From IMG/VR virus record IMGVR_UViG_3300027508_000039, positions 1 through 27,349 of that record: 27,349 bases of DNA; one strand, written 5' to 3'. Positions within the stretch are counted from its first letter, which is position 1. Each line of letters begins with the position of its first letter. Positions 4,189 through 18,973 of this stretch are shown piece after piece. Source of the DNA: a virus. Lineage: Duplodnaviria; Caudoviricetes. The translations under genes and the position numbers were made by a program. Below the pieces are notes generated by a model. That model was given only the letters and a program-made list of their open reading frames with translations, made no database searches and had not been told where the DNA came from.

Positions 4189-5139
4189 ATGGCTGGTGCA
4201 GGCGTTCGCTTGTTTTCCGCTGGTAGCCAAGTATTGGCATCGCAGGTAAACACTTATTTGATGGATCAGGTTGTCGCTTATTTTGCGGACAGCGCTGCCC
4301 GTGATGCATCATTTGGCGGTGTTGGCGAGCCGACTTTGAGCCCAGGTCGTGTTTGCTACTTATTTTCCGACAACAAACTGTACCTATATGGGAACGATAA
4401 TGCGTGGGCAGAAATCGGCGCACAGTTGGATGACAGCGAAGTAACCACAGCAAAGATTAATAACCTTGCCGTAACTGAAGCAAAACTAGCGGACAACTCT
4501 GTTACTAGCGCAAAAATTGTTGACGGAACTATTGTTAACGCAGATATCAACGCTTCTGCGGCGATAGCGCTATCAAAACTTGCTAGTGGCACAGCGGCTC
4601 AGGTGGTTGTCCATAACAGTTCTGGCGTTCCAACCGCAACGACCGTAACGGGAGATGTCACGATCTCTTCCTCTGGTGTGACTGCTATAAGTTCTGGTGT
4701 AATAGTTGACGCTGATGTTAATGCTTCCGCCGCTATTGCTTATTCAAAACTCAACCTCGCTGGTTCTATCACGAATAGTGACATTTCAACTACAGCCGCA
4801 ATTTCTCTCACCAAGGTTGCTGACGTAACAATATCCACAAAAACAAGCACCCCATATGTGATAGCGTTAGGCGACAAAAACTCGTTGATTGAAATGAACC
4901 TCGCAGGAGCGAATGTGGTGAACGTCCCAACAAACGCATCTACACCTTTCCCGATAGGAACAGTAATTAATATTGTTCAATATGGTGCAGGAAAAACACA
5001 GGTAGTTGCTAGTACTCCGGGTACTACATCTGTTCGTGCTACACCGGGCAACTTCTTGCGGGATCGGTACGCAACCGCTGCGCTTATCAAGCGAGGCACA
5101 GACGAGTGGTATCTGATAGGTGACTTGAGCGAAACGTGA
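4189..5139 (+). CDS. Phage minor tail/fibre protein with C-terminal 'GDL' domain
   Basis: N-terminus AGAGVRLFSAGSQVLASQVNTYLM...AARD resembles actinophage minor tail proteins. It carries VTxAKI/L and IVNADINASAAI fibre repeats. The C-terminal domain (YVIALGDKN...FPIGTVINIVQYGAG...LIKRGTDEWYLIGDLS) is shared with 18975 and 21821. Confidence 0.8.
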   Translation: MAGAGVRLFSAGSQVLASQVNTYLMDQVVAYFADSAARDASFGGVGEPTLSPGRVCYLFSDNKLYLYGNDNAWAEIGAQLDDSEVTTAKINNLAVTEAKLADNSVTSAKIVDGTIVNADINASAAIALSKLASGTAAQVVVHNSSGVPTATTVTGDVTISSSGVTAISSGVIVDADVNASAAIAYSKLNLAGSITNSDISTTAAISLTKVADVTISTKTSTPYVIALGDKNSLIEMNLAGANVVNVPTNASTPFPIGTVINIVQYGAGKTQVVASTPGTTSVRATPGNFLRDRYATAALIKRGTDEWYLIGDLSET

Positions 5140-5783
5140 TAAACCAATTCGGCAATATTGCTGGTGGCGGAAAATTTGTTACATCTCCAACTAGCGTTTC
5201 GGCGACAGCAAGTGGTGCTGTGGTCAATGTGACCTTCGTTGCGGCAACTTATGATGGTAAAGAAATAGCCACATATACGGTCACTTCAAGTCCGGGCAAC
5301 ATAACAGCCTCAGGTTCATCATCTCCGATAACCGTAAATGGTCTTACTGCCAATACTGCCTACACCTTCACTGTTACCACCGACAGCACTTATGGTGTCA
5401 CGCAAACTTCTTCACCTTCAAACTCTGCTACCCCACCATATTTCCCACCGTACTTTCCACCGTTTTTTCCTCCTTTTTTCCCGCCGTTCTTCCCGCCGTT
5501 CTTCCCGCCGTTTTTTCCTCCCTTCTTCCCGCCCTTCTTCCCGCCGTTCTTCCCGCCCTATTTCCCACCATGTTTTGCCGGTTCATGCGGTTCATGTTCC
5601 CCGTCATCATCAAATGGAACGGGAGCGCTTATCGGGTGCCAAATGCCGGGCTGTCAGACGGGTTGCCGTTACTACACAACCACAACAACATGTGGTTGTA
5701 CGGGGTGCACCAATGCCTGTGGTGTTCCTGGGTCGGTATCCTCTGGATGTTCAACATCCAATACTGGTTCGGTGTGTGTATAG
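5136..5783 (+). CDS. FN3-like domain + (PP[F/Y]F)12 tract + Cys-rich C-terminal domain; putative fibre tip/adhesin
   Basis: GTGA overlap with the upstream fibre gene. FN3 signature YTVTSSPG...ITVNGLTANTAYTFTVT; 12 Cys in the last 70 aa. Confidence 0.85.
   Translation: MINQFGNIAGGGKFVTSPTSVSATASGAVVNVTFVAATYDGKEIATYTVTSSPGNITASGSSSPITVNGLTANTAYTFTVTTDSTYGVTQTSSPSNSATPPYFPPYFPPFFPPFFPPFFPPFFPPFFPPFFPPFFPPFFPPYFPPCFAGSCGSCSPSSSNGTGALIGCQMPGCQTGCRYYTTTTTCGCTGCTNACGVPGSVSSGCSTSNTGSVCV
5433..5576 (+). repeat. Coding 12-nt tandem repeat x12 (PPYF x2, PPFF x8, PPYF, PPCF)
   Basis: Units of the form CCN-CCN-TWY-TTY counted directly, with heavy synonymous variation. Confidence 0.95.
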
Positions 5784-5797
5784 CCAATAACCGTATA

Positions 5798-5806
5798 TGC
5801 TATTGT
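5798..5806 (+). promoter_or_regulatory. Putative extended -10 promoter
   Basis: TGcTATTGT upstream of the AAGGA RBS of the 5834 gene. Confidence 0.5.
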
Positions 5807-5833
5807 GACTATTAACAGAGAAAAGGACACCAC

Positions 5834-6091
5834 ATGTCAGACGAAACCCCAACACCACCAGTATTCACGGCACCAGTAAACCATACACATTACGCTTTCG
5901 TCGTAGATGGTGATTTGGGCTGGCTTCACTCAATAGACAACAACCTTGAAGGTGCAAACGCTGTATTCAAGTCTGCCCCAACGATCGTTGAAATTTCAGA
6001 AGAACAGTTCCTCAATTTCCTAAACGGAGCGATCCCGCCGTACGGCAATTACAAGTGGGACGGCACGAACTGGTCGCTCGCCACAGAATAA
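5834..6091 (+). CDS. Small hypothetical protein, possible fibre-assembly chaperone/accessory
   Basis: Good RBS. YAFVVDG...YKWDGTNW pattern is typical of small proteins that follow phage fibre genes. Confidence 0.65.
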   Translation: MSDETPTPPVFTAPVNHTHYAFVVDGDLGWLHSIDNNLEGANAVFKSAPTIVEISEEQFLNFLNGAIPPYGNYKWDGTNWSLATE

Positions 6092-6318
6092 TGAGCGCAT
6101 GGCAGGAATATAAAAAGAAAATGGGAACAACAACCCCATTAACCGCGCTCAACCCTGATAACTACAATTTTGACGAAACCGTATCCAACAAGCGATACGA
6201 GATATGTGAATCATGTCCTAGGTTTTTCAAACTGACCAAACAATGCAAAGAGTGTGGTTGCTTCATGGCTATAAAGACAAAACTCCGAGAGGCAGAGTGT
6301 CCTTTAGGCAAGTGGTAA
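6091..6318 (+). CDS. Small Cys-rich metal-binding protein (DUF6171-like)
   Basis: Start moved to ATG 6091 (TAATG overlap). Motif RYEICESC...CKECGCFM...CPLGKW. Confidence 0.75.
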   Translation: MSAWQEYKKKMGTTTPLTALNPDNYNFDETVSNKRYEICESCPRFFKLTKQCKECGCFMAIKTKLREAECPLGKW

Positions 6319-6324
6319 TTGGGG

Positions 6325-6330
6325 TAGTGT
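6325..6330 (+). promoter_or_regulatory. Putative leaderless -10 promoter
   Basis: TAGTGT lies 6 nt before ATG 6337. Confidence 0.5.
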
Positions 6331-6336
6331 TTATAC

Positions 6337-7038
6337 ATGGCTTACCTCGGGCATGAACACATTTATACTTTTGATGATTTCATCACAGAGGAAGACGCCT
6401 CAGAATTAATCAGATTCCACGATGACGAGTTTCAGTGGGATAGCAGTATGTCTTGGGTTGCCCCATTGGAACAATTCAATGTTGGATCCGTTGTCCTCAC
6501 AGGCGCATATGGGGAAGAGGTAAAAAGAAGGCAAAGCGAATGGAGCCCCACTTCAACGCACCCATTAAGCGCTGTTTATGGCGAAAAAATCATGAAGATA
6601 GCCTCACAGACATTTGGTAGAACTTTAGTTCACAGGCTTATCCCTTACTACAAGAAATTTCTAGTTGGTTCAGATCATGATCCACATGCTGACAGTGAAG
6701 CGATGGACAAAGGCGTTGTTGACTTCATGCCACGGTATAGTCCAAGCGAATTCAATACACCTGTCCTCATTGAGGTTGCCGCAAACCTCTATCTCAATGA
6801 TGAATTTGAAGGTGGAGAACTTTATTTCCCCACTCGCGATTTGGTGATTAAACCAAAAGCAAGACAACTGATTCTTTTCCCCGGCGGGCACGAGTACATT
6901 CACGGAGTCAAAACAATAACTAGTGGAGATAGATGTGTTTTGTTCAGTCCGCTAACAAGCCCGCAACGCCTACTTCTACACATGCACGCCTACAACACAT
7001 GGCAGGAACTAGAGAAGGTAAAAAATGAGCGACAATGA
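6337..7038 (+). CDS. 2OG-Fe(II) oxygenase, prolyl 4-hydroxylase-like
   Basis: PHAD (HxD); YLNDEFEGGELYFP; HGVKTITSGDR (distal His and 2OG-binding Arg). Confidence 0.92.
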   Translation: MAYLGHEHIYTFDDFITEEDASELIRFHDDEFQWDSSMSWVAPLEQFNVGSVVLTGAYGEEVKRRQSEWSPTSTHPLSAVYGEKIMKIASQTFGRTLVHRLIPYYKKFLVGSDHDPHADSEAMDKGVVDFMPRYSPSEFNTPVLIEVAANLYLNDEFEGGELYFPTRDLVIKPKARQLILFPGGHEYIHGVKTITSGDRCVLFSPLTSPQRLLLHMHAYNTWQELEKVKNERQ

Positions 7039-8086
7039 TTTGTTTAACGGCACCACGCCCGAAATAGACAAGCCAACTATCAAAGAGATCATGGATACAC
7101 CCATGGAAAGTTTGGGTGGAGGGGTCGTACGATTCCCCGGCGTAGTTAAAATTGACCGAGAAAAAGTAAGCAAATGGTGCGACGCCAATGCAAAAAAAGC
7201 CCACGAGCAAAGATGGACTTACCACAAAGACAACGATGGCGTCACCTATGCGACCAACGAAGATGGGAACAAATTTTCCCTTGAACAGATTGAAGAAGTT
7301 CCTGTTCGTCTTTTAAACCCAGTAGAACAAGACACAGATCCTGAAATGGTAGAAATTTTCAAGCATTGGGAAGACGAAATTTATAAATGCCTAATCAAAT
7401 ACATTGATGAATACCCAATGGTTCTTGGAACCTTGTGGTGGAGAAGCCGTGGTCACTTAATGCGATACGACGAAGGAGACTACCTAGGTATTCACAATGA
7501 CAACGATTCAAACTTCCGCTCCACCAAAGGCAAGCGATATGTCCCAACTGGTCAGATGCAGATGCGTCAAGTTGTTGCAATCATGCTGTACCCAAATGAC
7601 TGCGTTAATACAGAAGAAGAGTACGACGGAACGAACTATGTTGGCGGGAACTTATTCTTCCCATACTTGGGTATAGAAACCACACCAAAACAGGGAGATA
7701 TTTTTATCTTCCCAACAAACTATATGGCTACCCATGGTGTGAAAACAGTTACCAAGGGGCACAGATACGGATATCTAGAGTTTTGGTCTCAAGGTAATTC
7801 CGACGAAAGTGTTTTGATTAGCGTTGCAGAGCCTGCTGATTGTGATGGTTGGTGCCGACCGCATTGGATTGACAGCCTGTACGACGACTACAACAAGTAT
7901 TGTTTGTACTCAGAGTATTTAAATCCTGAGAAAGTTGATCGCGCAAACCCTGTTTATCAGAACCGAACCCTTGAAGGCAACGAGGGGCAAATGCAACCGT
8001 ATTCTCATCACAGGGTTTTTGAAGATAACAAAGACAGAGGGAAAATAAATCCAGATGTTCTCATGCCCAACATTCAAGAAAGTTGA
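7025..8086 (+). CDS. 2OG-Fe(II) oxygenase, P4H-like ('LGGG/WWR' paralogue group)
   Basis: HND; YVGGNLFFP; THGVKTVTKGHRY. Confidence 0.9.
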   Translation: MSDNDLFNGTTPEIDKPTIKEIMDTPMESLGGGVVRFPGVVKIDREKVSKWCDANAKKAHEQRWTYHKDNDGVTYATNEDGNKFSLEQIEEVPVRLLNPVEQDTDPEMVEIFKHWEDEIYKCLIKYIDEYPMVLGTLWWRSRGHLMRYDEGDYLGIHNDNDSNFRSTKGKRYVPTGQMQMRQVVAIMLYPNDCVNTEEEYDGTNYVGGNLFFPYLGIETTPKQGDIFIFPTNYMATHGVKTVTKGHRYGYLEFWSQGNSDESVLISVAEPADCDGWCRPHWIDSLYDDYNKYCLYSEYLNPEKVDRANPVYQNRTLEGNEGQMQPYSHHRVFEDNKDRGKINPDVLMPNIQES

Positions 8087-8843
8087 GTTCATTGATCTAT
8101 TAGTGAATGCCTCGTATTATGGGCATCTTCTCAATGTTTATGGCGCTGTAGGTTTTAAGAAAATAAATGTTACTCCAGCACAACAGCAAGAACTATGTAG
8201 GCTTCTAGGTGATTTTGTTAATTGGATACCGAATTCCAAACATCCGACTCCAACAGTTGAACAGTACATCCAAACTTTTGAATTAGAACTCCAAAGTAAA
8301 AAGCCTAGACAAAAATTCTTGACAGAATTAAGCATGGACATAACAAGCCAGCCACCACCCGTCGGTTCAATCCTGAACAACACTGTTTTTCAGTGCAGTA
8401 AAAAATCGGGATCAACAGTCCTTATTGATATGAGAAAAGTGTTTAGCCTCCTCAGGGAAGAGTGGCAAGATTTTATTAGTAAAATTGCTTGGCTTGATTC
8501 GGAAACAGGGATTTCGCGTCTGATGGTTGAAAAACATAGGAGCACTAATCAAAAGATACTAATATTTTCTACAGAATTTGCATTAGAATTAGAACAAGAT
8601 TCAAGGTATAGATTTTTCTCAGACGGTGAAGAAATTAATCAGGAACAGAAAAAAATATTAAAAGAAATATTTGAAGAAATACTTGACATTATCCATATAT
8701 GCAATCTGAACATCCTAGAAGAATGGAAATGGGACGAAAAAGACTTACTGATAATTGATGACAGTTGCATGATGCAAGCAACAAAAGGTGGATTCAAGTA
8801 TGGCTCACGAATAATGATCCACCAAAAATGTTCGGCTAACTAG
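8055..8843 (+). CDS. TauD/TfdA-fold dioxygenase-like protein, apparently catalytically degenerate
   Basis: YGAVGFK...TPAQQ, GSTVLIDM and WKWDEKDLLIIDDSCMMQ match the TauD layout, but the HxD position reads SMD and the distal His position reads Q. Confidence 0.7.
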   Translation: MFSCPTFKKVEFIDLLVNASYYGHLLNVYGAVGFKKINVTPAQQQELCRLLGDFVNWIPNSKHPTPTVEQYIQTFELELQSKKPRQKFLTELSMDITSQPPPVGSILNNTVFQCSKKSGSTVLIDMRKVFSLLREEWQDFISKIAWLDSETGISRLMVEKHRSTNQKILIFSTEFALELEQDSRYRFFSDGEEINQEQKKILKEIFEEILDIIHICNLNILEEWKWDEKDLLIIDDSCMMQATKGGFKYGSRIMIHQKCSAN

Positions 8844-9615
8844 TTATATCACCAACATAAACTTGTTTCTGATAGGAATATCCGACATCTTCGCGGAGTT
8901 TTTTCATCCAAGAGTATTGTGCATCCATTGAAGTTGATTGCGAATTGATATCAAGATGGGAAGTCAAACCATGAGCGAACCAAGACAGGTAAGCGAACCT
9001 GACACCACTCTCTAATGGTGCAACAGAATGACACCCAATAAAAGAAGATGGGTAGATGAGGATGCTTCCTTTTGGGGGCTTTATATTTATTCCCCAAGGC
9101 GCAAAACCTATTTCTCCTCCTTCGTAATCATCGTTTAATACGAGGCTAGAAGTAAGCGTATTGTGAATAGGGAATCTATTTACCTCAACAAAACTGTTCG
9201 GCTCATACGCAATGGCGCAGTCAGAATGCGATCCAATATACATACCTTTGTGATACTCAATAAAATACCCACGAGTTCTCCAAGTAACCGTTTCCATCAC
9301 AACAGGAAAAGATTTACAATATTCAACAAGGCATTTGTAGATTGAGTCCTCCAATAATTGTACAAAGGCTCTATCGTCATCCGAAATTCCTTGATACAGA
9401 GTGTTGGTATGGCGAATCGGTAGAGAAGAAAGATGGTCGTCTTGGAATTCGTACCCACCATTGTTTTTGACTGTTTCCTCATCTTTTGCAATACCGTAGA
9501 CAGTCGGAGGGGAGTTATCGTACATTCGCTTCATAAAAGAAACAAAGAACTCAGAGTCCACATTGACAGCATCTTCAAAAAGAATTATTCCGCTACCCAG
9601 ATGTCTGGCTTTCAT
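8836..9615 (-). CDS. 2OG-Fe(II) oxygenase, P4H-like ('LGGG/WWR' group)
   Basis: HSD; LNDDYEGGEI; CHSVAPLESGVRFAY. Confidence 0.9.
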   Translation of the reverse strand: MKARHLGSGIILFEDAVNVDSEFFVSFMKRMYDNSPPTVYGIAKDEETVKNNGGYEFQDDHLSSLPIRHTNTLYQGISDDDRAFVQLLEDSIYKCLVEYCKSFPVVMETVTWRTRGYFIEYHKGMYIGSHSDCAIAYEPNSFVEVNRFPIHNTLTSSLVLNDDYEGGEIGFAPWGINIKPPKGSILIYPSSFIGCHSVAPLESGVRFAYLSWFAHGLTSHLDINSQSTSMDAQYSWMKKLREDVGYSYQKQVYVGDITS

Positions 9616-10502
9616 TAGTTCATTCGCTCTGTCAAAGTAAAACCAAGATGTTCTGTATCTTTGACATTGGCAGTCAAATAGTTGCGGAAGTCTCTCCTTA
9701 GATTTGGCATGTACACGTTTGTTGATCGTTGCGCCTCTTCGGGGTCAGTTGTAGGGTCAACAATTGTTTCGTTGAGGTCAGGGTTTGGTGACCCATGTGA
9801 ATACCAGCCAAGGTAACTGTAACGAGTTCCGCCAGTAACTGGTTTCACTTCGTGTGAGGCAATAAAGTTTGAAGGGAACATCAGAATGTCTCCCTTGCGA
9901 GGAGAGTAAGTTATTCCGAGATAGTCAAAAACATGTTCTCCTCCACTGAATGCATCCTCTCCAACTTGATCTATACCGACGCAATCGTTGACATACATAA
10001 CTACTGAAAGAGTATTTTTTGTTGGTAACTGCTCTTTAGGGTGGTCTATCCCGTATAGATAGTCCACACTTGAATCAGAGTGTGTCCCCAAGAATAATCC
10101 ACCCTTTTGTGTTGAGTAAGAAACAATATGCCCCTTAACCTTCCACCAAATATTCTTGTATGCGAGCGGATGAATGGTCATATAGCCAAGCAAACAATTA
10201 TCTCGGGCAGATTCTAAAAAATTCAATAGTTCAATTACTTCAGGTCGCTTATCTTGATGAGTGTTGGCTGCCCGCCGTGGCATCATATCAACACCATCTT
10301 TTCTGAAAATATACCCACTTCGGTTTATGTAACAGGGTTCGCCTGTTTCAGGGTTTATCCCTTCTGTGTACATAGATTCACGTTCAGAAGCAACGAATTC
10401 TTCAAATAGATCGCGCGTTGAGCCCCAATCTACCGTGAAGGCGTTTTTGAAGAGTATTACTCCACCACCCAATTCCTCTGGCTCTATCCCGTTGAATTTC
10501 AT
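9615..10502 (-). CDS. 2OG-Fe(II) oxygenase, P4H-like ('LGGG/WWR' group)
   Basis: HSD; FSGGEHVF; SHEVKPVTGGTRYSY. Confidence 0.9.
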   Translation of the reverse strand: MKFNGIEPEELGGGVILFKNAFTVDWGSTRDLFEEFVASERESMYTEGINPETGEPCYINRSGYIFRKDGVDMMPRRAANTHQDKRPEVIELLNFLESARDNCLLGYMTIHPLAYKNIWWKVKGHIVSYSTQKGGLFLGTHSDSSVDYLYGIDHPKEQLPTKNTLSVVMYVNDCVGIDQVGEDAFSGGEHVFDYLGITYSPRKGDILMFPSNFIASHEVKPVTGGTRYSYLGWYSHGSPNPDLNETIVDPTTDPEEAQRSTNVYMPNLRRDFRNYLTANVKDTEHLGFTLTERMN

Positions 10503-11366
10503 TTAAATGTGGTCTTTCGCTCTGCTTTTGAATAGTGTGAGTTTCTCTGGAACCCCATTAGGGTACTTGCGATAAATATAGTCTTCATAATCGTCAATGA
10601 GAGTTTCAAGCCACCACTGACCACCAGAATGGTATTCGCCGTCAGACACAATAGGGTTAACCCCATGTTCAGGTGCTGGTGTGCCCTGAGCGAACCACAA
10701 AAGATATGAATACCTTGAACCCTTGGTTATTTCATGTATCTCATGGGCTCCAAGATAGTTTGCTGGCATCAAAACGATAGAGCCCGTATGAGGGACAATG
10801 TCAATATCAAAGTAAGGAATACTCATGTGACCACCGCTGAATCCATATTCACATTGACTTCCGTCATCGGTGCACGAATTGAAATAAACAAGCGCAGAAA
10901 CAACGTTCCGAGTCGCATGATCAAGTTGAGGAATAGCGCCATACCTGTAATTCACATCATTATCAGAATGAAAGCCAAGGCTGGCACCCTCGTCGTAGCA
11001 AAGAACATGACCACCAGATTTCCACCACAAACACTGCAAAATCGCAGGGAACATCTCTATATATTCAAGAAGTGCTTCGTAAACACGATCATCACATTCT
11101 TTAAAGAATGGGTGAGTTAGGTTTTGAATTCTTACTGGTGAACGCTTGTATGCGTCAAGACCATAAATAAACCCACCCTTATTGATGGTGTGCAAGGGTT
11201 CACCGTTATCGTCATAGACAATAGTGAAATTCTCTTGACGCCACTTTTCTTTTTCCTGTTCAAGATATGAAATCAAGTCACCCTGTGGGACGGTTATCGC
11301 ATTCTCAAAAAGAACAGTTCCGCCACCAAGATGTCTTGGCTGAAGCGGATTTTTTTCATTCACCAA
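10503..11366 (-). CDS. 2OG-Fe(II) oxygenase, P4H-like ('LGGG/WWR' group)
   Basis: HSD; FSGGHM; AHEIHEITKGSRYSY. Confidence 0.9.
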   Translation of the reverse strand: MVNEKNPLQPRHLGGGTVLFENAITVPQGDLISYLEQEKEKWRQENFTIVYDDNGEPLHTINKGGFIYGLDAYKRSPVRIQNLTHPFFKECDDRVYEALLEYIEMFPAILQCLWWKSGGHVLCYDEGASLGFHSDNDVNYRYGAIPQLDHATRNVVSALVYFNSCTDDGSQCEYGFSGGHMSIPYFDIDIVPHTGSIVLMPANYLGAHEIHEITKGSRYSYLLWFAQGTPAPEHGVNPIVSDGEYHSGGQWWLETLIDDYEDYIYRKYPNGVPEKLTLFKSRAKDHI

Positions 11367-12563: not shown

Positions 12564-13528
12564 ACTGAAATAACTCCCTTGACATTAAGCGTAGAGTAAT
12601 CGTTGATCTTCATATAACCGCTCACATTCCCATTATCTTCAACAAGGTTAAGGGAAACTTTAGCAATCATCGGTGTGGAGACCTGATATTCGGAATAGAA
12701 ACAACCTTCACTAAGGGAGTATGTGATATCCGTTGAATACTTACCTTGCTCAATTTTTGCCTTTGAGTCTGTATCAAAAACTATAGATATGTTTTCGTTA
12801 CCTAAAGGTGTTAAAACGGTCAAGCGGTACGACTTCCCAAATAATGGAGAACCAGTTTCGTAGTGGAAACCATTATTGAACAAACCTTGTGGAGGGCATT
12901 CTTTACTCCAAACATTAACAATCAACGACTGTTTAACCCCAGAAGGCGCTGGTGTCGTTCCATGAAGTTGATGACCTGCATCAAATATGATTAAGCGATT
13001 ACTCTTATATTTGATTCTTTCACGAGTTTCTATTGGGCTATTTTTCAAAATCGGATCAATGAAACTTTTCTCCAAAGAACCGACTGAATCACGAACCAAT
13101 AAGATTGGATAAAGTTCAAAAAAACCTGCTTCTTCTCCGTTATCCACTCCCCACCAAACAGCACCGAGAGTTGGTGTTCCTAAAGATTTATCGTGAACGT
13201 AGCGAGCAGTGTCGGCATCAATATGTGGTTGTATGTACTGACCCGGCTCATATGTTCTTGTCCAATACTCAAATCCGACCACTTCATCAATGTTTATTTT
13301 TCCCTCAAATATCTTTCGGATCAATTTCTTTTTGAGGGTATCCATTGGGCTTTTCCACCAACCATCCCAAAACATGTATGGAGAAAAAACCGAACCATTA
13401 GGGTCGTTGTACATATTCGGCACAGATGCGACCTTCTCCCCATCACCCATGGATACAGGGAAAAATGAGTCATCATCAAATATTGCGCTCAGGGTTACTT
13501 CGTCAAAATAGTTGTCTTGAATAATCAT
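12560..13528 (-). CDS. 2OG-Fe(II) oxygenase fused to a ~90-aa C-terminal beta-rich domain
   Basis: FEYWTR...PHID; KSNRLIIFDAGHQLHG...GVKQSLIVNVW. Start moved to ATG 13528, which follows an AAGGAG RBS. Confidence 0.82.
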   Translation of the reverse strand: MIIQDNYFDEVTLSAIFDDDSFFPVSMGDGEKVASVPNMYNDPNGSVFSPYMFWDGWWKSPMDTLKKKLIRKIFEGKINIDEVVGFEYWTRTYEPGQYIQPHIDADTARYVHDKSLGTPTLGAVWWGVDNGEEAGFFELYPILLVRDSVGSLEKSFIDPILKNSPIETRERIKYKSNRLIIFDAGHQLHGTTPAPSGVKQSLIVNVWSKECPPQGLFNNGFHYETGSPLFGKSYRLTVLTPLGNENISIVFDTDSKAKIEQGKYSTDITYSLSEGCFYSEYQVSTPMIAKVSLNLVEDNGNVSGYMKINDYSTLNVKGVISV

Positions 13529-13529
13529 A

Positions 13530-14279
13530 TTACTCCTTAACAACTATTGTAAGTCCATAAAACAAAGGTATATGGTAGACATTACAGAAACTATTGTGTT
13601 TTAGTTCATGATGCCATTCCCACGCAGGACTTACTATCGTTTTATTGTGATACAGAAATGAGGAGTCCGAACTGTTTTGGATCAGCATCACCCCACCAGA
13701 ATTGAGCCTGTCAACATAAGTTGATGCACCCAAAAACGGATTCTCCATATCCGATGACCAACCAAGAATCAAGTCATATTTAGTGTCTTCATCCAAATCT
13801 AATTCCTGTCGTGTCACCATTTTATACGGCACATTTGGAAGAATATTTGAAGTCCCTTTAGCGAATCGTTCATAATACAAAAGTCTCTTTGAGTTAAGTA
13901 TTGAAAGTTCTGCACCATACTTATTCACGAGCGTGTCATACTTGAATCTGTCCAAATATCCTGAAATTGACAGAACTGTATTCATTCTTTTCACATCAAA
14001 AATTGCAAAAACTAGTGCTAAAGAAAGCCACTGCGGACTTGAGTATCCTTTATGAAGTTTGGCGTGAGGCTGATGAATTACGTAATCAAAATCACTAGCC
14101 CCACCAGTAGCGATATTGCGACGATCAACGCCAACGGTATTGAACATATACTCGCCAATTAAAACAGACTGTGCGCAATCTTCATCTATGCATTGGTCGG
14201 CAAAATCAGAAAGCGGTACGTCTGTAAAACTGCTCAAATCAAACAGTTGATCTAACTCGTATCTTTTGTTATCAGACAT
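13530..14279 (-). CDS. Class I SAM-dependent methyltransferase-fold protein (divergent)
   Basis: C-terminal YDLIL...YVDRLNSGGVMLIQN...YHIPLFYGLTIVVK resembles the O-methyltransferase C-terminus. No clear GxGxG motif. Start moved to ATG 14279. Confidence 0.55.
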   Translation of the reverse strand: MSDNKRYELDQLFDLSSFTDVPLSDFADQCIDEDCAQSVLIGEYMFNTVGVDRRNIATGGASDFDYVIHQPHAKLHKGYSSPQWLSLALVFAIFDVKRMNTVLSISGYLDRFKYDTLVNKYGAELSILNSKRLLYYERFAKGTSNILPNVPYKMVTRQELDLDEDTKYDLILGWSSDMENPFLGASTYVDRLNSGGVMLIQNSSDSSFLYHNKTIVSPAWEWHHELKHNSFCNVYHIPLFYGLTIVVKE

Positions 14280-14574
14280 TTGATAACTCGTAGGATGAAA
14301 CTTGAAGATCAAAGTATGAGCGACGAAGAACCCGTGCTAAAAGTATGTTCTGACTCTTTAGATATTCATACACGGCATAGTTTTCTGTGTGCATATTTAT
14401 AAGATGCGAAGGCTTATATGCATAAATCGTGCGAATACGCTCCATTGCCTCATCAAAAGAAACAGTTTTGATTTCTGATTGTTCATAACCTAAAGTCAAA
14501 AGCACGCAAGCAATTGTTGTGGAAGCATAGCCAAAATCAGAGGTGGCGTCATAGGTTTCATCCTTTGTTTTCAT
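14272..14574 (-). CDS. Hypothetical protein (100 aa, helical)
   Basis: Overlaps both neighbours in operon fashion; GAGG upstream. Confidence 0.7.
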   Translation of the reverse strand: MKTKDETYDATSDFGYASTTIACVLLTLGYEQSEIKTVSFDEAMERIRTIYAYKPSHLINMHTENYAVYEYLKSQNILLARVLRRSYFDLQVSSYELSNV

Positions 14575-14749: not shown

Positions 14750-14753
14750 GACA

Positions 14754-14963
14754 TTACGACAACTTCTTTAATGCAAAAATTTCGCTTTTCAAACATTCCC
14801 AACTTGTATGAAGTGGGTCTTGAAAATTATAAGGATTAGCCGAAGTTTCGTTAATAGAAGACGGGTCAATATCCATCATTTTAGAAAGAATAAATATTGA
14901 TTCCTCTAAAAAAACCTTAGCCTTAGATCTTGCCTTCTCGTAATCAAAAACGCCTATGTCCAT
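14754..14963 (-). CDS. Small hypothetical protein (69 aa)
   Basis: Same strand and tight packing with neighbours. Confidence 0.65.
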   Translation of the reverse strand: MDIGVFDYEKARSKAKVFLEESIFILSKMMDIDPSSINETSANPYNFQDPLHTSWECLKSEIFALKKLS

Positions 14964-14974
14964 AGGCTTCCATG

Positions 14975-15694
14975 CTAGTTCATCGGTTCATTCAGTTTTG
15001 GCAACCCCTGAAATGACGGTCCGATCTTATTCCCGTCGGCATCCAAACCAGTTTTTATCCCTTTTGTCCAAGTCCATGGTTTTTCTTGGTTATTTTTTGA
15101 TTTCATGGCACCATACTTGGATCGTTGTTCAACAAGTTCTTTGTCATCCCACAGGCTTGACACTTCAAAAGAAGTTTCAGAAAGCACCCTATTGTCAAAT
15201 AGGGTAAAAAACATGAATGGCATACCAGCCTCAAACACGACTGGTTCACCAATTCTGGTGATCATCCAGTTCATTTGGAACTCATCCGGCCACCAAGAAC
15301 TTGGAATGATTGCAGATAGTGGTTTAGCACCATCAACCATATAGTTTGGCGACCCACCAATCCAAATGTCGTAGTTTTCTTCTGTGCGAAAAGCGTATTG
15401 TGTTGAAAAGGAGATCATGCCAATAATGCTTGAATGAACAATGAGTTTGTGTGCGCCAAGCGCAGTCTGTATCTTTTCACCAGAGATGATGGTTGGTGGC
15501 ACATTGCCTCCATTCCACTCAACGACCACATCCTGCTCTAGTTGCAATTCCCACCCATAAACATTCGCATAGGTCATTGGTAGGCATTGGTAAGCATGCT
15601 TGTTATAGGTGTTGTCCATCCACTCCCGTTTGAGCCGAGACTGAACTATTTTGGGCGTAGTTGTCTGTGTTTTCAGTAATTGTATTTTTGACAT
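14975..15694 (-). CDS. DUF6065-like protein
   Basis: AYQCLPMTYANVYGWEL, GSPNYMVDG.KPLSAII..SW and FQMNWMITRIGEPVVFEAGMPF match my recollection of the DUF6065 motifs. Confidence 0.75.
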   Translation of the reverse strand: MSKIQLLKTQTTTPKIVQSRLKREWMDNTYNKHAYQCLPMTYANVYGWELQLEQDVVVEWNGGNVPPTIISGEKIQTALGAHKLIVHSSIIGMISFSTQYAFRTEENYDIWIGGSPNYMVDGAKPLSAIIPSSWWPDEFQMNWMITRIGEPVVFEAGMPFMFFTLFDNRVLSETSFEVSSLWDDKELVEQRSKYGAMKSKNNQEKPWTWTKGIKTGLDADGNKIGPSFQGLPKLNEPMN

Positions 15695-16353
15695 TAATAA
15701 TTTTTTTCTTGACTGTAACTTGCTTGACGGGTTAGGTCATGGTTGTTGTCGTTGTAATCAAACATTGTCACAGCAGAGTACTTCGTCCCTGAAAGAACTG
15801 GCTTAGCCGCATGGGCATATATGTATGTTGATGGGAAAAGAACAATATCTCCGTATTCGGGCTTGAAGGACAAATCCAAATAGGGGAACCATAATTCCCC
15901 ACCCTCGTAGTCATCATTCAAATACATACATGATGAAGTAGTGCATGTATAAGAAAAACCATGATCTGTATGGACTTGAAAGTGTTGATTCGTTCCATAC
16001 CTAATGTAGTTAATCGCCTCCATGTAGGCGAGATTAATGTTGTAGCGCTTCTCGTAGTCCGCGATGCACTCTTTCAGCGGGTTTTTAGTGTCATTGTAAA
16101 TGTTTATCAATTCAGAGAATTGGGGAGGGCAGTGTTTGATATGGAGTTCACCCATCTTGCAATCAACGCAATCTCTGTACTCGGGCATTTTTTGGTTATA
16201 ACCAACTAGCGCATCCATCCACATGTATGGCGGTGTCTTGCTTTCCCCAATTGTTTCTTCAAGACGATCTACAAGTCTTAACGACTTTGGTAAGGCGTTT
16301 TGATATAACAGGATCCCTAGACGTGGGTCACTTAAATGAACAGGATTTTTCAT
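15694..16353 (-). CDS. 2OG-Fe(II) oxygenase, P4H-like
   Basis: VHTD; YLNDDYEGGELWFP; AHAAKPVLSGTKYS (Lys at the 2OG-binding position). Confidence 0.92.
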   Translation of the reverse strand: MKNPVHLSDPRLGILLYQNALPKSLRLVDRLEETIGESKTPPYMWMDALVGYNQKMPEYRDCVDCKMGELHIKHCPPQFSELINIYNDTKNPLKECIADYEKRYNINLAYMEAINYIRYGTNQHFQVHTDHGFSYTCTTSSCMYLNDDYEGGELWFPYLDLSFKPEYGDIVLFPSTYIYAHAAKPVLSGTKYSAVTMFDYNDNNHDLTRQASYSQEKNY

Positions 16354-16357
16354 ATGC

Positions 16358-17005
16358 TCAGTCTACCTCCCATACTTGTTGCCATGAGTATCTTTCGCCA
16401 GAAGTAACACTGGTCACTTCATGACATGAATTCTCGTCGGCAATGTTATTAAGTAAAACCATCGTATTGGCAAGTGGCTTCAGCGTGATACCGAGAAACG
16501 GAGCATGGAATTCGCCCCCTTCAAAATCATCATTTATGTAGTAAACCGTAGAAAATGAAGCAGATACATAATCTGTTCCTATGCTCTTTTCATAAGTATC
16601 AGAGTGCATGCGCAGACCGCGCCCATCTGAATACTTCAATAAAAAGTTATTGTATATTCCCCTAGGATGAATATCAAATGTTGACATAATAGCCTTCATT
16701 GACAAAATCTCAATTTTAAGAATAACTTTTTTTATTTGTTCATCAATCGGTTTATTGCGAAAATATGACCAGTCCATGACCGTGGGTGGGTAATCAAGAT
16801 CGGTGTTATCTGTTTGAGATGGAACGTATGGTCTGAGATAAGAAACAGATGCGTCACCGCTGTGTGCAACATGTTTGAACCGCACAGCAGAAAGTTCGTC
16901 CGTTGAGGGCTGAAAATCTACGCCGCTTTTAACATATTCAAGTAGCAACTTATGATCGTCGGCGTTTAAGAAATCTTTAAAAACATGAAAATTAGTGTTT
17001 GGCAT
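16358..17005 (-). CDS. 2OG-Fe(II) oxygenase, P4H-like
   Basis: MHSD; YYINDDFEGGEF; CHEVTSVTSGERY. Start moved to ATG 17005 to remove an 86-nt overlap. Confidence 0.88.
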   Translation of the reverse strand: MPNTNFHVFKDFLNADDHKLLLEYVKSGVDFQPSTDELSAVRFKHVAHSGDASVSYLRPYVPSQTDNTDLDYPPTVMDWSYFRNKPIDEQIKKVILKIEILSMKAIMSTFDIHPRGIYNNFLLKYSDGRGLRMHSDTYEKSIGTDYVSASFSTVYYINDDFEGGEFHAPFLGITLKPLANTMVLLNNIADENSCHEVTSVTSGERYSWQQVWEVD

Positions 17006-17009
17006 TGAA

Positions 17010-17756
17010 TTAACTTTCGTCCAAAAGCCAAAAATGTTGGCGAACATAGCGCACACCTTTTGTGACGCTATTGACGCGATGAGCCATATCCTCATCCCAT
17101 GGCGTGCAATTTAGGATTAGGGAATTTGGTTTTGGCTTAAAACTTAGCCCAATATACGGAGTGCAATGCTCTCCACCCTCATAGTCATCATTTAGGTAAT
17201 AGATTGAAGCAAAATGGCATGGACGATGCGCAGTTGGTGAACTCTCATTAAAATCATAGCCATCTGTGTGCATTCTCATTGAGCGACTGTTTTCAATTTT
17301 TGTGAATACTGGCGGAAAAGTATTTTGTGCTTTTTGCCCAAACAAAGAAAAAATTTGTTCATTTATTTGAGAATCAAGTTTTGTGATTATGTCTAAGATC
17401 TTTTGTTCAATAGGTTGATGTAAGACCAGATTCCAGTCTTCATAGTTTTCCAAGCCCTCGGGGAAAGGTTCCGCCATCTGCCCACTTTTTATTTTTTCAA
17501 AAGTTTCATCATCAAAAACTTCTGAACGCAAATATTCAATAGATTCATCTTTGCTGTGCTTTACTGTATGAAATCTTGTCGCTGTAGGAGGTCTTTTATC
17601 CATTGATTCAGTGAATCCCCAAGTAAGTGGATCCGTATTTCTTACATACCAATCCAATGTTGACCATGAATCGCCATCTAGAAAATCTTGATAAATAGAA
17701 ATACTCGGGTATACGCTTTTCGGCGGGTTGGACGGAGTCGGCATAGTTTTAAACAT
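17010..17756 (-). CDS. 2OG-Fe(II) oxygenase, P4H-like (tandem paralogue of 16358)
   Basis: MHTD; YYLNDDYEGGEH; AHRVNSVTKGVRY. The start is at 17756 or 17765. Confidence 0.88.
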   Translation of the reverse strand: MFKTMPTPSNPPKSVYPSISIYQDFLDGDSWSTLDWYVRNTDPLTWGFTESMDKRPPTATRFHTVKHSKDESIEYLRSEVFDDETFEKIKSGQMAEPFPEGLENYEDWNLVLHQPIEQKILDIITKLDSQINEQIFSLFGQKAQNTFPPVFTKIENSRSMRMHTDGYDFNESSPTAHRPCHFASIYYLNDDYEGGEHCTPYIGLSFKPKPNSLILNCTPWDEDMAHRVNSVTKGVRYVRQHFWLLDES

Positions 17757-17757
17757 G

Positions 17758-18405
17758 TCACTCATCCACAACGGTATAGAAAGCAGGAGTCGTATATCTT
17801 TCTCCACTAATCACTGGTTTAACCCCGTGCATGTAATAGAAGTCTCCGGGGTGAAGTACTGCTAAACCCGGTTTGGGTTTTACGATGATGTCGTGCTGTG
17901 GGTAGTAAAGTTCCCCACCTTCAAAGTCGTCGTTGTAATAAAAAAGCGAATTTATGTCATATGTTGGGAACGGATTTGGGGATCCATCGTTTAATTGTTT
18001 ATCGGCGTGGGGTTGTTGCTCTATCCCTCCAAACCAACGGATCAGGCATGGCGGACGGGAACTTAATTTTACATGAAAAATATCTTCCATGGTTTTAGCC
18101 ATTTTGGCTATGTAGTGATCAATTAGATCGTAGATACCCGAATCAAGGCGCTTTAGTATCGTCGCCGTGCATTGACGGTCATTCCAATAGGACGCATCAT
18201 AGGTGCAGACACCCTCTTCGTTGTAGGTGTTTTCTAGTTGATCGTTATGCCACTCTTTGATGTTTCGCGCAAAACCAATGATTTTTTTGACATCGTCAGA
18301 ATCAATGAAGTTTTCTATGACATGAATGTTTTCTTTGCCTCGCCCAAAAGCGCCGGGTTTTACAGCCCAAGGACCATCATCAAAGTTGTGTTGTGTTTGT
18401 TCCAC
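17758..18405 (-). CDS. 2OG-Fe(II) oxygenase, prolyl 4-hydroxylase-like
   Basis: PHAD; YYNDDFEGGELYYP; MHGVKPVISGERY. Confidence 0.92.
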   Translation of the reverse strand: MEQTQHNFDDGPWAVKPGAFGRGKENIHVIENFIDSDDVKKIIGFARNIKEWHNDQLENTYNEEGVCTYDASYWNDRQCTATILKRLDSGIYDLIDHYIAKMAKTMEDIFHVKLSSRPPCLIRWFGGIEQQPHADKQLNDGSPNPFPTYDINSLFYYNDDFEGGELYYPQHDIIVKPKPGLAVLHPGDFYYMHGVKPVISGERYTTPAFYTVVDE

Positions 18406-18407
18406 AC

Positions 18408-18427
18408 AAAAATCCTAGCACTCTAGG
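18408..18427 (-). terminator. Weak intrinsic terminator-like hairpin overlapping that promoter
   Basis: CCTAG-agtg-CTAGG followed by ATTTTT, just after the 18437 stop. Confidence 0.35.
18412..18420 (-). promoter_or_regulatory. Putative extended -10 leaderless promoter of the oxygenase operon
   Basis: TGcTAGGAT, then 6 nt, then GTG at 18405; no SD sequence. Confidence 0.6.
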
Positions 18428-18436
18428 GTGTGATAC

Positions 18437-18973
18437 TTATTTGAATGCTGGTGGGAAGAACGGAGGGAAAAATGGTGGGAAAAATGGCGGGAAGAATGGT
18501 GGGAAGAATGGTGGGAAAAATGGTGGGAAGAACGGTGGGAAGAACGGAGGGAAGTATGGAGGGAAGTATGGCGGAAAAAACGGCGGAAAGAACGGCGGGA
18601 AATAAGGTGGGAAATAAGGTGGGAAATAAGGTGGGAAATAAGGTGGCGTTACTGCTGCGCTCGCTGCTGAAGCAGGACTAACAGGACCGCTACTGCTCGT
18701 AGCAGTCACAGTAAACGTATAAGCAGTATTTGATGTTAAACCAGTGACAGTCAAAGGTGAAGATGCACCCGTTGCAACATGACCACCGCTTGATGTTACC
18801 GTGTAGGAAGAAATAGTACCAGTTTTTCCAAGGTAGGCAGGAGCAGTGAACGGAACAGTAACGGTTTGCGCGGTATTACCTGCCGTATTGTTGACAACAG
18901 CATTTACGGTTGGCGTACCAACTGTCGGTGCTGCTGGTTGTTTACCGCCAGAATCTTTTCCTTTTGTTGCCAT
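18437..18973 (-). CDS. FN3-like domain + C-terminal (PP[F/Y]F)17 tract; putative fibre tip
   Basis: YTVTSSGG...LTVTGLTSNTAYTFTVTA. Starts 1 nt after the stop of the 18975 fibre gene. Confidence 0.88.
   Translation of the reverse strand: MATKGKDSGGKQPAAPTVGTPTVNAVVNNTAGNTAQTVTVPFTAPAYLGKTGTISSYTVTSSGGHVATGASSPLTVTGLTSNTAYTFTVTATSSSGPVSPASAASAAVTPPYFPPYFPPYFPPYFPPFFPPFFPPYFPPYFPPFFPPFFPPFFPPFFPPFFPPFFPPFFPPFFPPAFK
18443..18646 (-). repeat. Coding 12-nt tandem repeat x17 (PPYF x4, PPFF x2, PPYF x2, PPFF x8, PPAF)
   Basis: Counted directly. The first four units are identical (CCACCTTATTTC). Confidence 0.95.

Follow-up and report, generated by a model that had tools for sequence, protein, structure and literature searches.

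Introduction

PBCV-1, a eukaryotic virus (chlorovirus), encodes one collagen-type prolyl 4-hydroxylase, vCPH (PDB 5c5t), an Fe/2OG enzyme of the P4H fold whose presumed targets are Pro-rich repeats encoded by the same genome; to our knowledge, the peptide substrates of this enzyme contain no Phe pairs. Bacterial and giant-virus collagen hydroxylases (mimivirus L230 is of the LH3 type) modify a repetitive surface fibre protein of their own organism, and their substrates are built of Gly-X-Y. In T4 and S16, a small gene with an unusual repeat, gp38, lies directly behind the fibre gene, the S16 protein having a polyglycine sandwich. A tandem dioxygenase array has been described in phage Syn9 (gp41-gp54), where ten dioxygenases follow Gly-rich fibre-block proteins; its authors proposed that it makes a secondary metabolite (Iyer, Abhiman, de Souza and Aravind 2010, PMC2938197).

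The locus analyzed here lies in 27,349 nt of DNA from an uncultured phage (Caudoviricetes; IMG/VR record IMGVR_UViG_3300027508_000039, the whole of this stretch being called the window below). Like PBCV-1 it encodes a P4H-fold Fe/2OG enzyme, here named OG0, but it belongs to a bacteriophage, and it places eleven paralogues and a DUF6065 protein beside the candidate substrate. The B. anthracis P4H (3itq/5hv0) and LH3-type enzymes are the closest solved sequences for several of these paralogues. The candidate substrate, a Pro-Phe tract, differs from collagen in having no Gly and a four-residue period, and would therefore not form a collagen triple helix of any known kind. Like this locus, Syn9 has numerous different 2OG dioxygenases arranged in tandem just behind fibre genes on the same strand, together with a dUTPase-fold protein in which a Cys is conserved. 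Unlike it, Syn9 also carries a JmjC-type member and two tryptophan halogenases and apparently has no Pro-Phe tract; PF19541, the DUF6065 family, had no match in the Syn9 record. The analogy with RiPP clusters drawn in a first-pass annotation of this DNA holds for co-encoding, with a repetitive candidate-substrate gene first and several tailoring-type enzymes after it on one strand. It is loose in that the tract is attached as a tail to a folded FN3 protein encoded within a fibre block, and in that a search for a leader peptide, a protease or an exporter of the RiPP type found none here. The gp38 proteins have no sequence relation to the tract proteins. We found no published description of the module.

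Results

Two FN3 proteins with Pro-Phe tails

As the first-pass annotation had proposed, two paralogous proteins combine an FN3 domain with a PP[F/Y]F tract, and each is tightly coupled to an upstream fibre gene (Table 1). Behind this domain, tract protein 1 has 11 strict PP[FY]F units, then a single PPCF and a Cys-rich tail of 70 residues, and tract protein 2 has 16 strict units and PPAF-K directly before the stop; their paralogy follows from 56% identity between the FN3 domains over 78 aa. The sequence GTGA at 5136-5139 overlaps the stop of the fibre-like gene with the start of tract gene 1, while at the junction of the 864-aa fibre gene with tract gene 2 (18977-18971) a single base separates TAA from ATG. 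Both fibre proteins carry a conserved C-terminal tip domain, their last 110 aa being 42% identical (alignment A4), and most related loci have this domain upstream of their tract gene. Relatives have a Peptidase_S74 or Hint-like domain downstream of the tract, and in one of them the Peptidase_S74 fibre chaperone follows directly. Judged from gene order, the tract protein would be attached to the fibre tip. Tract gene 2 and the OG0 gene are 31 bases apart, and a weak terminator-like hairpin lies in this interval.

Table 1. Features of the tract and oxygenase module and the adjoining fibre genes.
Feature	Position	Strand	Evidence
Fibre-like protein, 316 aa	4189..5139	+	PHROG tail and minor-tail families, E 4e-17
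Tract protein 1 (P0001), 215 aa	5136..5783	+	Translation, fn3 E 1.1e-5, tract position
Small ORF, 85 aa	5834..6091	+	No Pfam or PHROG match
DUF6171 small Cys-rich protein	6055..6318	+	PF19668 28 bits
2OG-Fe(II) oxygenase	6337..7038	+	PF13640 26.7 bits; PHROG 61 E 5e-18; HxD...H, R
2OG-Fe(II) oxygenase, 353 aa	7025..8086	+	PF13640 34.1 bits; triad
TauD/TfdA-family 2OG dioxygenase	8055..8843	+	PF02668 E 9.7e-10
2OG-Fe(II) oxygenase	8836..9615	-	PF13640 32.6 bits; triad
2OG-Fe(II) oxygenase	9615..10502	-	PF13640 43.9 bits; closest PDB lysyl hydroxylase LH3, E 0.008
2OG-Fe(II) oxygenase	10503..11366	-	PF13640 34.6 bits; triad
Glutathione-peroxidase-family (GSHPx) protein	11356..11985	-	PF00255 E 6e-22
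2OG-Fe(II) oxygenase	11970..12563	-	PF13640 49.1 bits
Divergent 2OG-Fe(II) oxygenase, Lys for Arg	12560..13543	-	PF13640 18.8 bits (under cut-off); triad
Recurrent 260-aa protein	13530..14312	-	Cluster in 19/84 loci
Recurrent 100-aa protein	14272..14574	-	Cluster in 10/84 loci; no family match
DUF6065 protein	14975..15694	-	PF19541 E 8e-47
Core oxygenase OG1	15694..16353	-	PF13640 46.1 bits; PDB B. anthracis P4H E 8e-7
2OG-Fe(II) oxygenase	16358..17095	-	PF13640 35.5 bits; triad
2OG-Fe(II) oxygenase	17010..17807	-	PHROG 61 E 2.8e-13; no Pfam match; triad
Core oxygenase OG0	17758..18405	-	PF13640 27.7 bits; first gene after tract protein 2
Terminator-like hairpin, weak	18414..18427	-	5-pair stem plus ATTTTTGTGT; consensus match only
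Tract protein 2 (P0002), 178 aa	18437..18973	-	Translation, fn3 E 3.5e-6, tract position
Tail fibre, 864 aa	18975..21569	-	Mtd_N start, PF18454 E 2.4e-13; PHROG tail families
Second tail fibre of the same block, 811 aa	21821..24256	-	PF18454 E 4.8e-9; PHROG tail-fibre families

Oxygenases and accessory genes

The 11 PF13640-type Fe/2OG oxygenases predicted earlier do lie between the two tract genes. Eight pass the Pfam cut-off (nine in a six-frame variant of the search), the others having 26.7 bits, 18.8 bits and a PHROG 61 match only. The His, Asp and His of the HxD...H motif are retained in all 11, and the residue after the distal His is Arg in nine and Lys in two. Both sequence and fold place the enzymes with protein prolyl and lysyl hydroxylases, in agreement with their earlier description as prolyl-hydroxylase-like: paralogues match P4H, PKHD and LH3 chains in the PDB, and the enzyme at 11970..12563 is closest to B. 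anthracis P4H and human C-P4H alpha-2 (3itq/5hv0, E 4.5e-5). The predicted structure of OG0 (AF2, pLDDT 94) has PBCV-1 vCPH (5c5t) as its top Foldseek match (E 2.6e-11) and aligns with human P3H1 (8k0f) at a TM on query of 0.67 and an rmsd of 2.5; PHD2, an algal P4H with a (Ser-Pro)5 peptide, B. anthracis P4H and LH3 are further fold matches. OG0 is the best candidate for a tract hydroxylase.

Among the accessory genes, the TauD, GPx and DUF6065 assignments of the first-pass annotation are supported by Pfam matches, and a methyltransferase fold for 13530..14312 was not confirmed (faint matches only, E at least 0.05). The DUF6065 gene, which the OG1 gene adjoins, is a single-copy core member found in 56 of 84 loci; the clusters of GPx, DUF6171 and TauD occur in 22, 24 and nine of the 84, and in locus L192 the DUF6171 gene likewise stands just ahead of the first oxygenase. 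All the best Foldseek matches of the DUF6065 model (AF2, pLDDT 92) are dUTPases (E about 2e-4, TM on target 0.6-0.68), and its residues C37, H33 and R23 are invariant.

Recurrence of tract and enzymes

The Pro-Phe tract occurs far above chance expectation. A 48-base tract pattern was found in about 1000 IMG/VR stretches and, among prokaryotes (185,579 genomes, 596 Gb), in 14 stretches, all of them MAG contigs; oxygenases were near all five long tracts on MAG contigs vs none of eight short spurious matches. Of the 116 oxygenase ORFs on 14 whole contigs, 77 are found at most 10 kb downstream of a tract gene. The density of oxygenase ORFs per 10 kb is 4.27 on the downstream side, vs 0.14 on the upstream side and 0.54 in the remainder of the contigs. 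Counted by gene order, 44 of the 53 tract proteins shorter than 500 aa for which 5 kb or more of downstream sequence was available are followed by two or more oxygenase ORFs (median 5), and where 5 kb was available on both sides (29 rows) there were 104 downstream and 25 upstream. These loci are kin by descent, and the counts are not of independent events. Tract-bearing proteins with few or no oxygenases nearby also occur and count against hydroxylation of the tract: none is nearby in L007, L009 and L017, which are three of the four tract proteins of at least 700 aa, or in L052, and the L018 lineage has a single oxygenase 4.5 kb from its tract gene.

The fibre tip domain alone served as an independent anchor, and 50 distinct loci found with it extend 5 kb or more downstream. 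Two to nine oxygenases are present in each of the 44 that have a tract, and none or one in each of the six that do not; OG0 is present in 44/44 of the former vs 0/6 of the latter. In three sister loci the fibre and the FN3 protein are kept, the tail is degenerate, and the remnant of the module consists of DUF6065 and, as the sole oxygenase, OG1. Conversely, all five distant loci found via an oxygenase have an FN3-(PPxFFx)n protein, its gene lying ahead of a 7-gene array. The association is seen with at least two unrelated N-terminal architectures, and also in lineages with only about 10 common ORFs of ~33% identity. Taken together, gene order, co-occurrence in divergent lineages and tip-anchored presence and absence strongly support the earlier claim that candidate substrate and enzymes are encoded together.

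Four members make up the conserved core: the tract protein, OG0, OG1 and the dUTPase-fold DUF6065 protein. OG0 is single copy in 60 of 84 loci, and OG1 is found in 59 of the 84 and in both main lineages. OG0, OG1 and DUF6065 are conserved across lineages and the other nine oxygenases are lineage-specific; the orthogroup of 7025..8086, for example, is restricted to the lineage of the window, and 12560..13543 forms an orthogroup of its own in 15 loci. The idea of eleven enzymes acting on one repeat is therefore not implied.

The cyanomyovirus setting suggested at first is not supported. A related contig has a terminase that most resembles those of Gordonia, Brevibacterium and psiM2 phages, and the tract is absent from the oxygenase-bearing cultured cyanomyoviruses and pelagimyophages; S-PRM1, Mosig and Melnitz have three to seven scattered oxygenase copies and no tract. 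Given such tract-free enzymes, and those of Syn9, the family must also have other substrates.

Discussion

Gene context and fold lead us to consider it somewhat probable that the PP[F/Y]F tails are hydroxylated post-translationally by the phage's own prolyl-hydroxylase-type oxygenases, yielding a modified, fibre-associated virion polymer. OG0 would hydroxylate Pro in the PP dipeptides; a second reaction, on the tail or at its end, might fall to OG1 together with DUF6065. TauD, GPx, DUF6171 and the lineage-specific paralogues could be responsible for additional modifications or for maintaining the iron enzymes in a reduced state. As one relative has the fibre chaperone right after the tract, the modified protein would be located at the fibre tip or next to it, probably in trimeric form. 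Crosslinking of the tract, adhesion and oxidation of Phe or Tyr are speculation. We know of no documented P4H motif in which Pro is flanked by Phe. Eleven paralogues also exceed the needs of a four-residue repeat, which counts against this explanation.

A less likely explanation, which nevertheless deserves some weight, is that tract and oxygenases co-travel only because both sit in an exchangeable block behind fibre genes, the enzymes acting on other fibre or virion proteins, on host envelope or ribosomal proteins, or on a small molecule. TauD-family enzymes usually act on small molecules, nine of the 11 paralogues are lineage-specific, and cultured relatives have oxygenases without tracts. 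Syn9 offers a comparable array, with its dUTPase-fold protein and apparently no tract, which its description reads as secondary-metabolite synthesis. Mere co-travel, however, does not predict that where the tract is degenerate or gone and fibre and FN3 are kept, the array falls to none or one gene and OG0 is always lost. Nor does it predict an array so strongly one-sided, downstream of the tract gene, or a linkage that is found again next to unrelated N-terminal domains, and also in lineages that have hardly any other genes in common; and the closest folds are those of peptide hydroxylases.

It is improbable, in our view, that the tract is a scaffold rather than a substrate, a hydrophobic tail that recruits or holds the enzymes or anchors the fibre in a hydrophobic host envelope while the enzymes act upon the fibre itself or surface molecules of the host during adsorption. 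The position of the tract protein downstream of the tip domain in most related loci would suit such a role, as would the tract that precedes a Peptidase_S74 chaperone, the usual place of a structural stalk, and the label 'minor coat protein' on two Syn9 array genes (record annotation, taken as is). Yet 2OG oxygenases require Fe(II), 2OG and O2 inside a cell, and a scaffold leaves unexplained why OG0 tracks the tract and not the fibre. Tuning of host nitrogen signalling through 2-oxoglutarate use, or DNA repair, both offered for cyanomyovirus 2OG-Fe(II) oxygenases by Sullivan et al. 2010, is very hard to credit here, as neither accounts for oxygenases in tandem that are linked to a repeat protein of the fibre block, the folds are of P4H, P3H and PHD rather than AlkB type, and the terminase does not support a cyanophage identity.

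Hydroxylation of the tails by the co-encoded enzymes is thus the reading we prefer. Because many other phages also have the repeat in company with the enzymes, the Pro-Phe repeat is a likely, predicted target for phage oxygenases whose role has been unexplained since 2007-2010.

Results

The two tract genes and the enzymes between them

Two proteins of the window join an FN3 domain (56% identity over 78 residues) to a (PP[F/Y]F)n repeat, the tract; they are listed with other features in the table. Each tract gene is joined to an upstream fibre gene, one by a GTGA overlap and the other by a TAA-N-ATG arrangement, and both fibres end in a common C-terminal domain of ~110 residues (42% identity), referred to here as the fibre tip domain. 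The arms that start at the two tract genes converge near 8840 and hold 11 PF13640-type oxygenases, a TauD-family dioxygenase, a glutathione-peroxidase-family protein (GPx), DUF6065, DUF6171 and a few unknowns. Translation, Pfam searches and gene order thus confirm what the first-pass annotation had observed, two FN3-PP[F/Y]F proteins coupled to fibre genes with oxygenases between them. Its count of 11 oxygenases with intact catalytic residues also holds: the His, Asp and His of the HxD...H iron-binding triad are invariant in all 11 paralogues, and the basic, 2OG C5-carboxylate-binding residue that follows the distal His (the aligned G-x-R/K column) is Arg in nine and Lys in two. The PF13640 cut-off of 27 bits is passed by eight of the 11, two others score 26.7 and 18.8, and the remaining one, which has no Pfam match, matches PHROG 61 (E 2.8e-13); a six-frame search placed nine oxygenases above the same cut-off. 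The paralogues, to which the TauD protein comes in addition, are 17-32% identical to the first of them, and the nearest solved chains by sequence are B. anthracis P4H, human C-P4H alpha-2, PBCV-1 P4H, PKHD/PiuC hydroxylases and the lysyl hydroxylase LH3.

The meeting point of the arms, with the end of the TauD gene and an oxygenase gene, has a G+C content of 0.365, as against 0.39-0.50 in the other 1-kb segments. Tract gene 2 and the first oxygenase gene are separated by 31 bases that contain a weak terminator-like hairpin, a consensus match only; it may act as an attenuator that lowers read-through from the structural gene into the enzyme genes. The promoter scan of the window gave no signal, with 33 sites where 38.4 were expected.

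Features of the window and of related loci (L) and contigs (G)
Feature	Coordinates	Strand	Description
1361-aa ORF	3-4085	-	runs past window start
Tract protein 1	5136-5783	+	215 aa; FN3, 11 strict PP[F/Y]F, one PPCF, Cys-rich tail
Low-G+C segment	8001-9000		meeting point of convergent arms
Oxygenase at meeting point	8836-9615		
Proposed methyltransferase-fold gene	13530-14312		
DUF6065	14975-15694	-	PF19541
OG1 oxygenase	15694-16353	-	
OG0 oxygenase	17758-18405	-	
Hairpin	18414-18427	-	5-pair stem and T-run
Tract protein 2	18437-18973	-	178 aa; FN3, 16 strict units, PPAF, Lys, stop
Virion-type protein	24918-26381	-	487 aa
Tract and Peptidase_S74	L031:1085-1771	-	
Tract and Hint/intein-like sequence	L006:3762-5135	+	also L038
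Tract and Hint/intein-like sequence	L060:8066-9304	-	
Variant tract gene	L192:3316-4218		also L189, L191, L193
Decayed-tail locus	L218:10331-12572		also L222, L227
244-aa family	L066:3297-4031		and 32 other genes
Syn9 gp38, gp39	L194:10344-12328		Gly-rich, 'tail fiber assembly'
Syn9 array	L194:12966-23145		dioxygenases and halogenases
Pro-Phe-run protein (960-1395 aa)	G002:45808-49530		
Pro-Phe-run protein (960-1395 aa)	G037:33793-37572		
Pro-Phe-run protein (960-1395 aa)	G017:32249-36433		
Pro-Phe-run protein (960-1395 aa)	G009:42414-45293		

Most tract genes are followed by oxygenase arrays

IMG/VR was scanned with a pattern of four in-frame PP[F/Y]F units, which returned at least 121 stretches (estimate ~1000 overall); those listed all read in frame as Pro-Phe tracts, apart from a few at the edge of a locus. 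The same pattern found only 14 stretches in 185,579 prokaryote genomes, all on MAG contigs, where five long tracts resemble phage proteins and have oxygenases adjacent, and eight short matches are non-genic and without oxygenases. A PF13640 match was present in 35 of 40 tract-bearing records, many of which have 6-11. The family is undercounted by the strict PPFF pattern, since a six-residue variant, (PPxFF[AS])n with x = G/A/N and a Cys-rich end, also exists; the gene of this type precedes DUF6171 and a seven-oxygenase array.

Oxygenases were counted with a profile built from the window's own 11, in 79 flanked loci (L053, on the same contig as L054, was excluded, and the tract is edge-cut in three loci). 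Where the tract protein is shorter than 500 aa and at least 5 kb of downstream sequence is present, 44 of 53 have at least two downstream oxygenase ORFs, with a median of five. Both flanks reach at least 5 kb in 29 rows, and these hold 104 oxygenase ORFs downstream versus 25 upstream; in the one contig checked, G014, the 'upstream' array is actually downstream of a second tract gene. As an internal control, 14 long contigs (50-105 kb) were read whole, excluding G005, a partial sequence. Oxygenase density per 10 kb is 4.27 over the first 10 kb downstream of tract genes, compared with 0.14 on the upstream side and 0.54 in the rest of the contigs, the enrichment for which the first-pass annotation had proposed to look; 77 of the 116 oxygenase ORFs lie downstream of tract genes, and the clustering is seen in 12 of the 14 contigs, the exceptions being G017 and G018. 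Tracts commonly standing without oxygenases, which the same annotation had named as evidence against its reading, are not what the 44 of 53 indicate, but four loci (L007, L009, L017, L052) do lack arrays and L018 has a single distant oxygenase. The converse test is small, since a search from a single oxygenase yielded only seven loci.

The long contigs form at least two deeply separated groups, with genomes of ~107 kb and of ~145 kb (the latter including the window), and two outliers. The two groups have ~10 ORFs in common at ~33% identity, mostly the oxygenases themselves. A shorter Pro-Phe run also occurs in the ~107-kb lineage, near the C-terminus of much larger proteins and far from oxygenase arrays; three of the four contigs concerned (G002, G037, G009) also carry a small tract gene with an array.

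Two core oxygenases, one of which follows the tract

At 40% identity the oxygenases fall into 66 groups, only two of which are near-universal and present in both main lineages: OG0, which in the window directly follows tract protein 2 and is single-copy in 60 of 84 loci, and OG1, which adjoins DUF6065 and occurs in 59. Loci were also anchored on the fibre tip domain alone. From the best 80 of 573 confirmed loci, 50 distinct ones with at least 5 kb downstream were obtained. A tract occurs somewhere in 44 of these, with 2-9 oxygenases per locus (median 5), and is absent from six, where the oxygenase counts are 0, 0, 0, 1, 1 and 1. All 44 tract loci contain OG0 and none of the six others does, which makes it the sharpest candidate for a tract-requiring enzyme. 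What comes after the fibre in the tract-less loci is an unrelated 680-aa protein (some), a Gly-rich protein (one) or the usual FN3 protein with a tail reduced by decay to two PPxF units and a Cys-rich and PSFG-type remnant (three); the last three keep only OG1 and DUF6065. These decayed-tail loci, which retain the FN3 protein and a fibre tip of 73-78% identity, look like a natural minimal module.

OG0, the sole paralogue of the 11 to be folded (with 68 relatives), gave a model of pLDDT 94, a double-stranded beta-helix that resembles protein prolyl hydroxylases most. The structures that it matches best are 5c5t, a collagen prolyl hydroxylase from a chlorovirus (E 2.6e-11), and 8k0f, which is human P3H1 (TM on query 0.67, rmsd 2.5 A); PHD2, the algal P4H with a (Ser-Pro)5 peptide (2jig/3gze), B. 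anthracis P4H (3itq) and LH3 come next. As modelled, then, OG0 is matched by protein hydroxylases and not by AlkB- or TET-like nucleic-acid enzymes.

DUF6065 and accessory genes

The window's DUF6065 passes the curated PF19541 cut-off (26.6 bits) with 160 bits (E 8e-47). Folded with 52 relatives, it gave a model of pLDDT 92 whose structural matches are dUTPases only (E ~2e-4, TM on target 0.6-0.68, 6-14% identity), and Cys37, His33 and Arg23 are invariant. When 1501 genes from 84 loci were clustered, DUF6065 was found exactly once in 56 loci, DUF6171 in 24, GPx in 22, the family of the proposed methyltransferase-fold gene in 19 and TauD in nine. The fold assigned to that gene in the first-pass annotation could not be confirmed: its profile reached E 0.063 at best for a methyltransferase in the PDB, and Pfam gave two faint matches across 19 members. 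The third commonest module member, a family of 244-aa proteins, occurs in 29 of 84 loci and is absent from the window. It has no Pfam match, and its likeness to DUF6065 is weak (hhalign probability 6%).

The tract protein belongs to the fibre block

In related loci, the start of the tract gene mostly lies no more than a few bases from the stop codon of a fibre gene with the tip domain, and the tract protein is a protein of the fibre block. The N-terminal parts joined to the tract are unrelated, comprising one to five FN3 domains, a 60-residue short domain, He_PIG Ig domains, or PASTA and Cys-rich regions, and the tract ends in a single Lys in many relatives and in Cys-rich tails in others. At L031, a Peptidase_S74 'chaperone of endosialidase' domain directly follows the tract (E 3.7e-11), in the position held by trimeric stalks in other fibres. 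In three further loci the tract is followed by Hint/intein-like sequence starting with Cys, which in L060, the fully scanned member of the three, is below Pfam cut-offs. Such autoprocessing-type domains hint, at the level of sequence, at cleavage or transfer of the tail end once the protein has folded. We infer that the tract protein is a fibre-associated, probably trimeric appendage.

Phage setting

The IMG/VR contig of 27,349 bases lacks end repeats and is rated ~19% complete, which would place the genome near 144 kb; a 17-kb stretch identical to the window is present in two further IMG/VR contigs. The comparison with T4-like cyanomyoviruses (Kyanoviridae) in the first-pass annotation finds no clear support. 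No hallmark gene was found in the window, and the terminase of the related contig G025 is nearest to those of psiM2, Gordonia and Brevibacterium phages (39-44% identity); 14 of 110 G025 ORFs are shared with the window at ~42% identity and, conversely, 16 of 28 window ORFs match G025 at ~40%. Pieces of the fibres match Synechococcus, Gordonia and Arthrobacter phages equally, with coverage of the protein never above 29%. The cultured phages S-PRM1, Mosig and Melnitz have three to seven scattered PF13640 genes and no tract, and cultured PSS2 has neither. Across 50,697 cultured phage records, there was no match to the 14.8-kb region (megablast), to DUF6065 (tblastn) or to tract protein 2 (tblastn, in which the BLAST low-complexity filter masks the tract).

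Outside the module, the 1361-aa ORF at the window start probably encodes a large fibre or spike; it has no PHROG family, and its match to a right-handed beta-helix is faint (E 0.0015). For the virion-type protein the PHROG match is 2647, 'head decoration' (E 3e-48). Over a piece of 159 residues it has 54% identity with a structural protein of the cyanophage PSS2 virion, and it also matches Pelagibacter and Methylophilales phage fibres; on these matches, the fibre block is a mosaic.

Discussion

Our data tip slightly in favour of hydroxylation of the tract by the core enzymes. The first-pass annotation had read the oxygenases as acting on the repeat, and gene order, linkage, catalytic residues and folds, which our analysis establishes directly, agree with that reading, with hydroxylation itself as the predicted step. 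The Pro of the PP units would be the site, OG1 together with DUF6065 would carry out a second step, GPx and the Cys-rich DUF6171 would provide redox upkeep of the iron enzymes, and the modified product would stand at the fibre tip. Several points count against hydroxylation of the tract: a repeat of four residues would not need so many paralogues, arrays without tracts occur elsewhere, tracts without arrays occur too, and the loci have a common ancestry. A fuller proposal, which we hold more tentatively and at somewhat less than even weight, is a hydroxyproline-rich fibre polymer of the phage's own, in which a (Pro-Pro-Phe-Phe)n tip tail is made soluble and stiff by OG0, finished by OG1 and the dUTPase-fold, Cys-bearing DUF6065, and diversified by lineage-specific oxygenases.

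In aquatic phages, few 'auxiliary' genes are commoner than those of 2OG oxygenases, whose substrates have been a matter of guesswork since 2007-2010: Sullivan et al. (2010) suggest a 2OG drain or DNA repair, and Iyer et al. (2010; PMC2938197) propose secondary-metabolite synthesis for the Syn9 array, in which ten dioxygenases in tandem are accompanied by two tryptophan halogenases and by a dUTPase-fold protein that has a conserved cysteine. Like Syn9, the window has a tandem array of several distinct 2OG dioxygenase families (the 11 paralogues and TauD) and, in DUF6065, a modelled dUTPase fold with an invariant C37; unlike Syn9, tryptophan halogenases and a JmjC/MINA-type member were not found among the 30 window proteins (Pfam, E ≤ 0.01). 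PF19541 has no match in Syn9, Melnitz, Mosig or S-PRM1, so DUF6065 is likened to the Syn9 protein by fold and Cys and not as an ortholog. In the Syn9 record the array likewise comes after fibre genes on the same strand, directly following gp38 and gp39, but the genes before it are Gly-rich and not Pro-Phe. Two array genes carry the record label 'minor coat protein', and the arrangement raises the question of Gly-rich fibre proteins as targets in Syn9.

Another parallel, for the predicted hydroxylation, is PBCV-1 vCPH. Here, too, the genome encodes Pro-rich repeats, in the two tract proteins, and the linkage holds across loci; the module is a new variation on the theme of a virus hydroxylase plus a repeat. 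The RiPP-like cluster envisaged in the first-pass annotation fits less well: a short leader-bearing precursor and a releasing protease would be expected, whereas here FN3 proteins carry the tract as their C-terminal tail and no protease family was found in the window, relatives having a C-terminal S74 or Hint-like domain instead. Literature searches outside subscription journals turned up nothing on Pro-Phe tracts of phages, on DUF6065 or on prolyl hydroxylases in the post-translational modification of phage tail fibres.

The module is of good interest because it is directly testable, offering a concrete substrate candidate and, in OG0, a first enzyme candidate. If the hydroxyproline-rich fibre polymer is real, the orphan arrays of tandem dioxygenases in phages would serve to tailor virions and would not be metabolic genes. 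If the tract is confirmed as the substrate, virions would gain a new kind of post-translationally modified structural polymer, the DUF6065 family with its modelled dUTPase-like fold would have a role, and a large class of phage genes now called 'metabolic' would belong with virion construction and host recognition.
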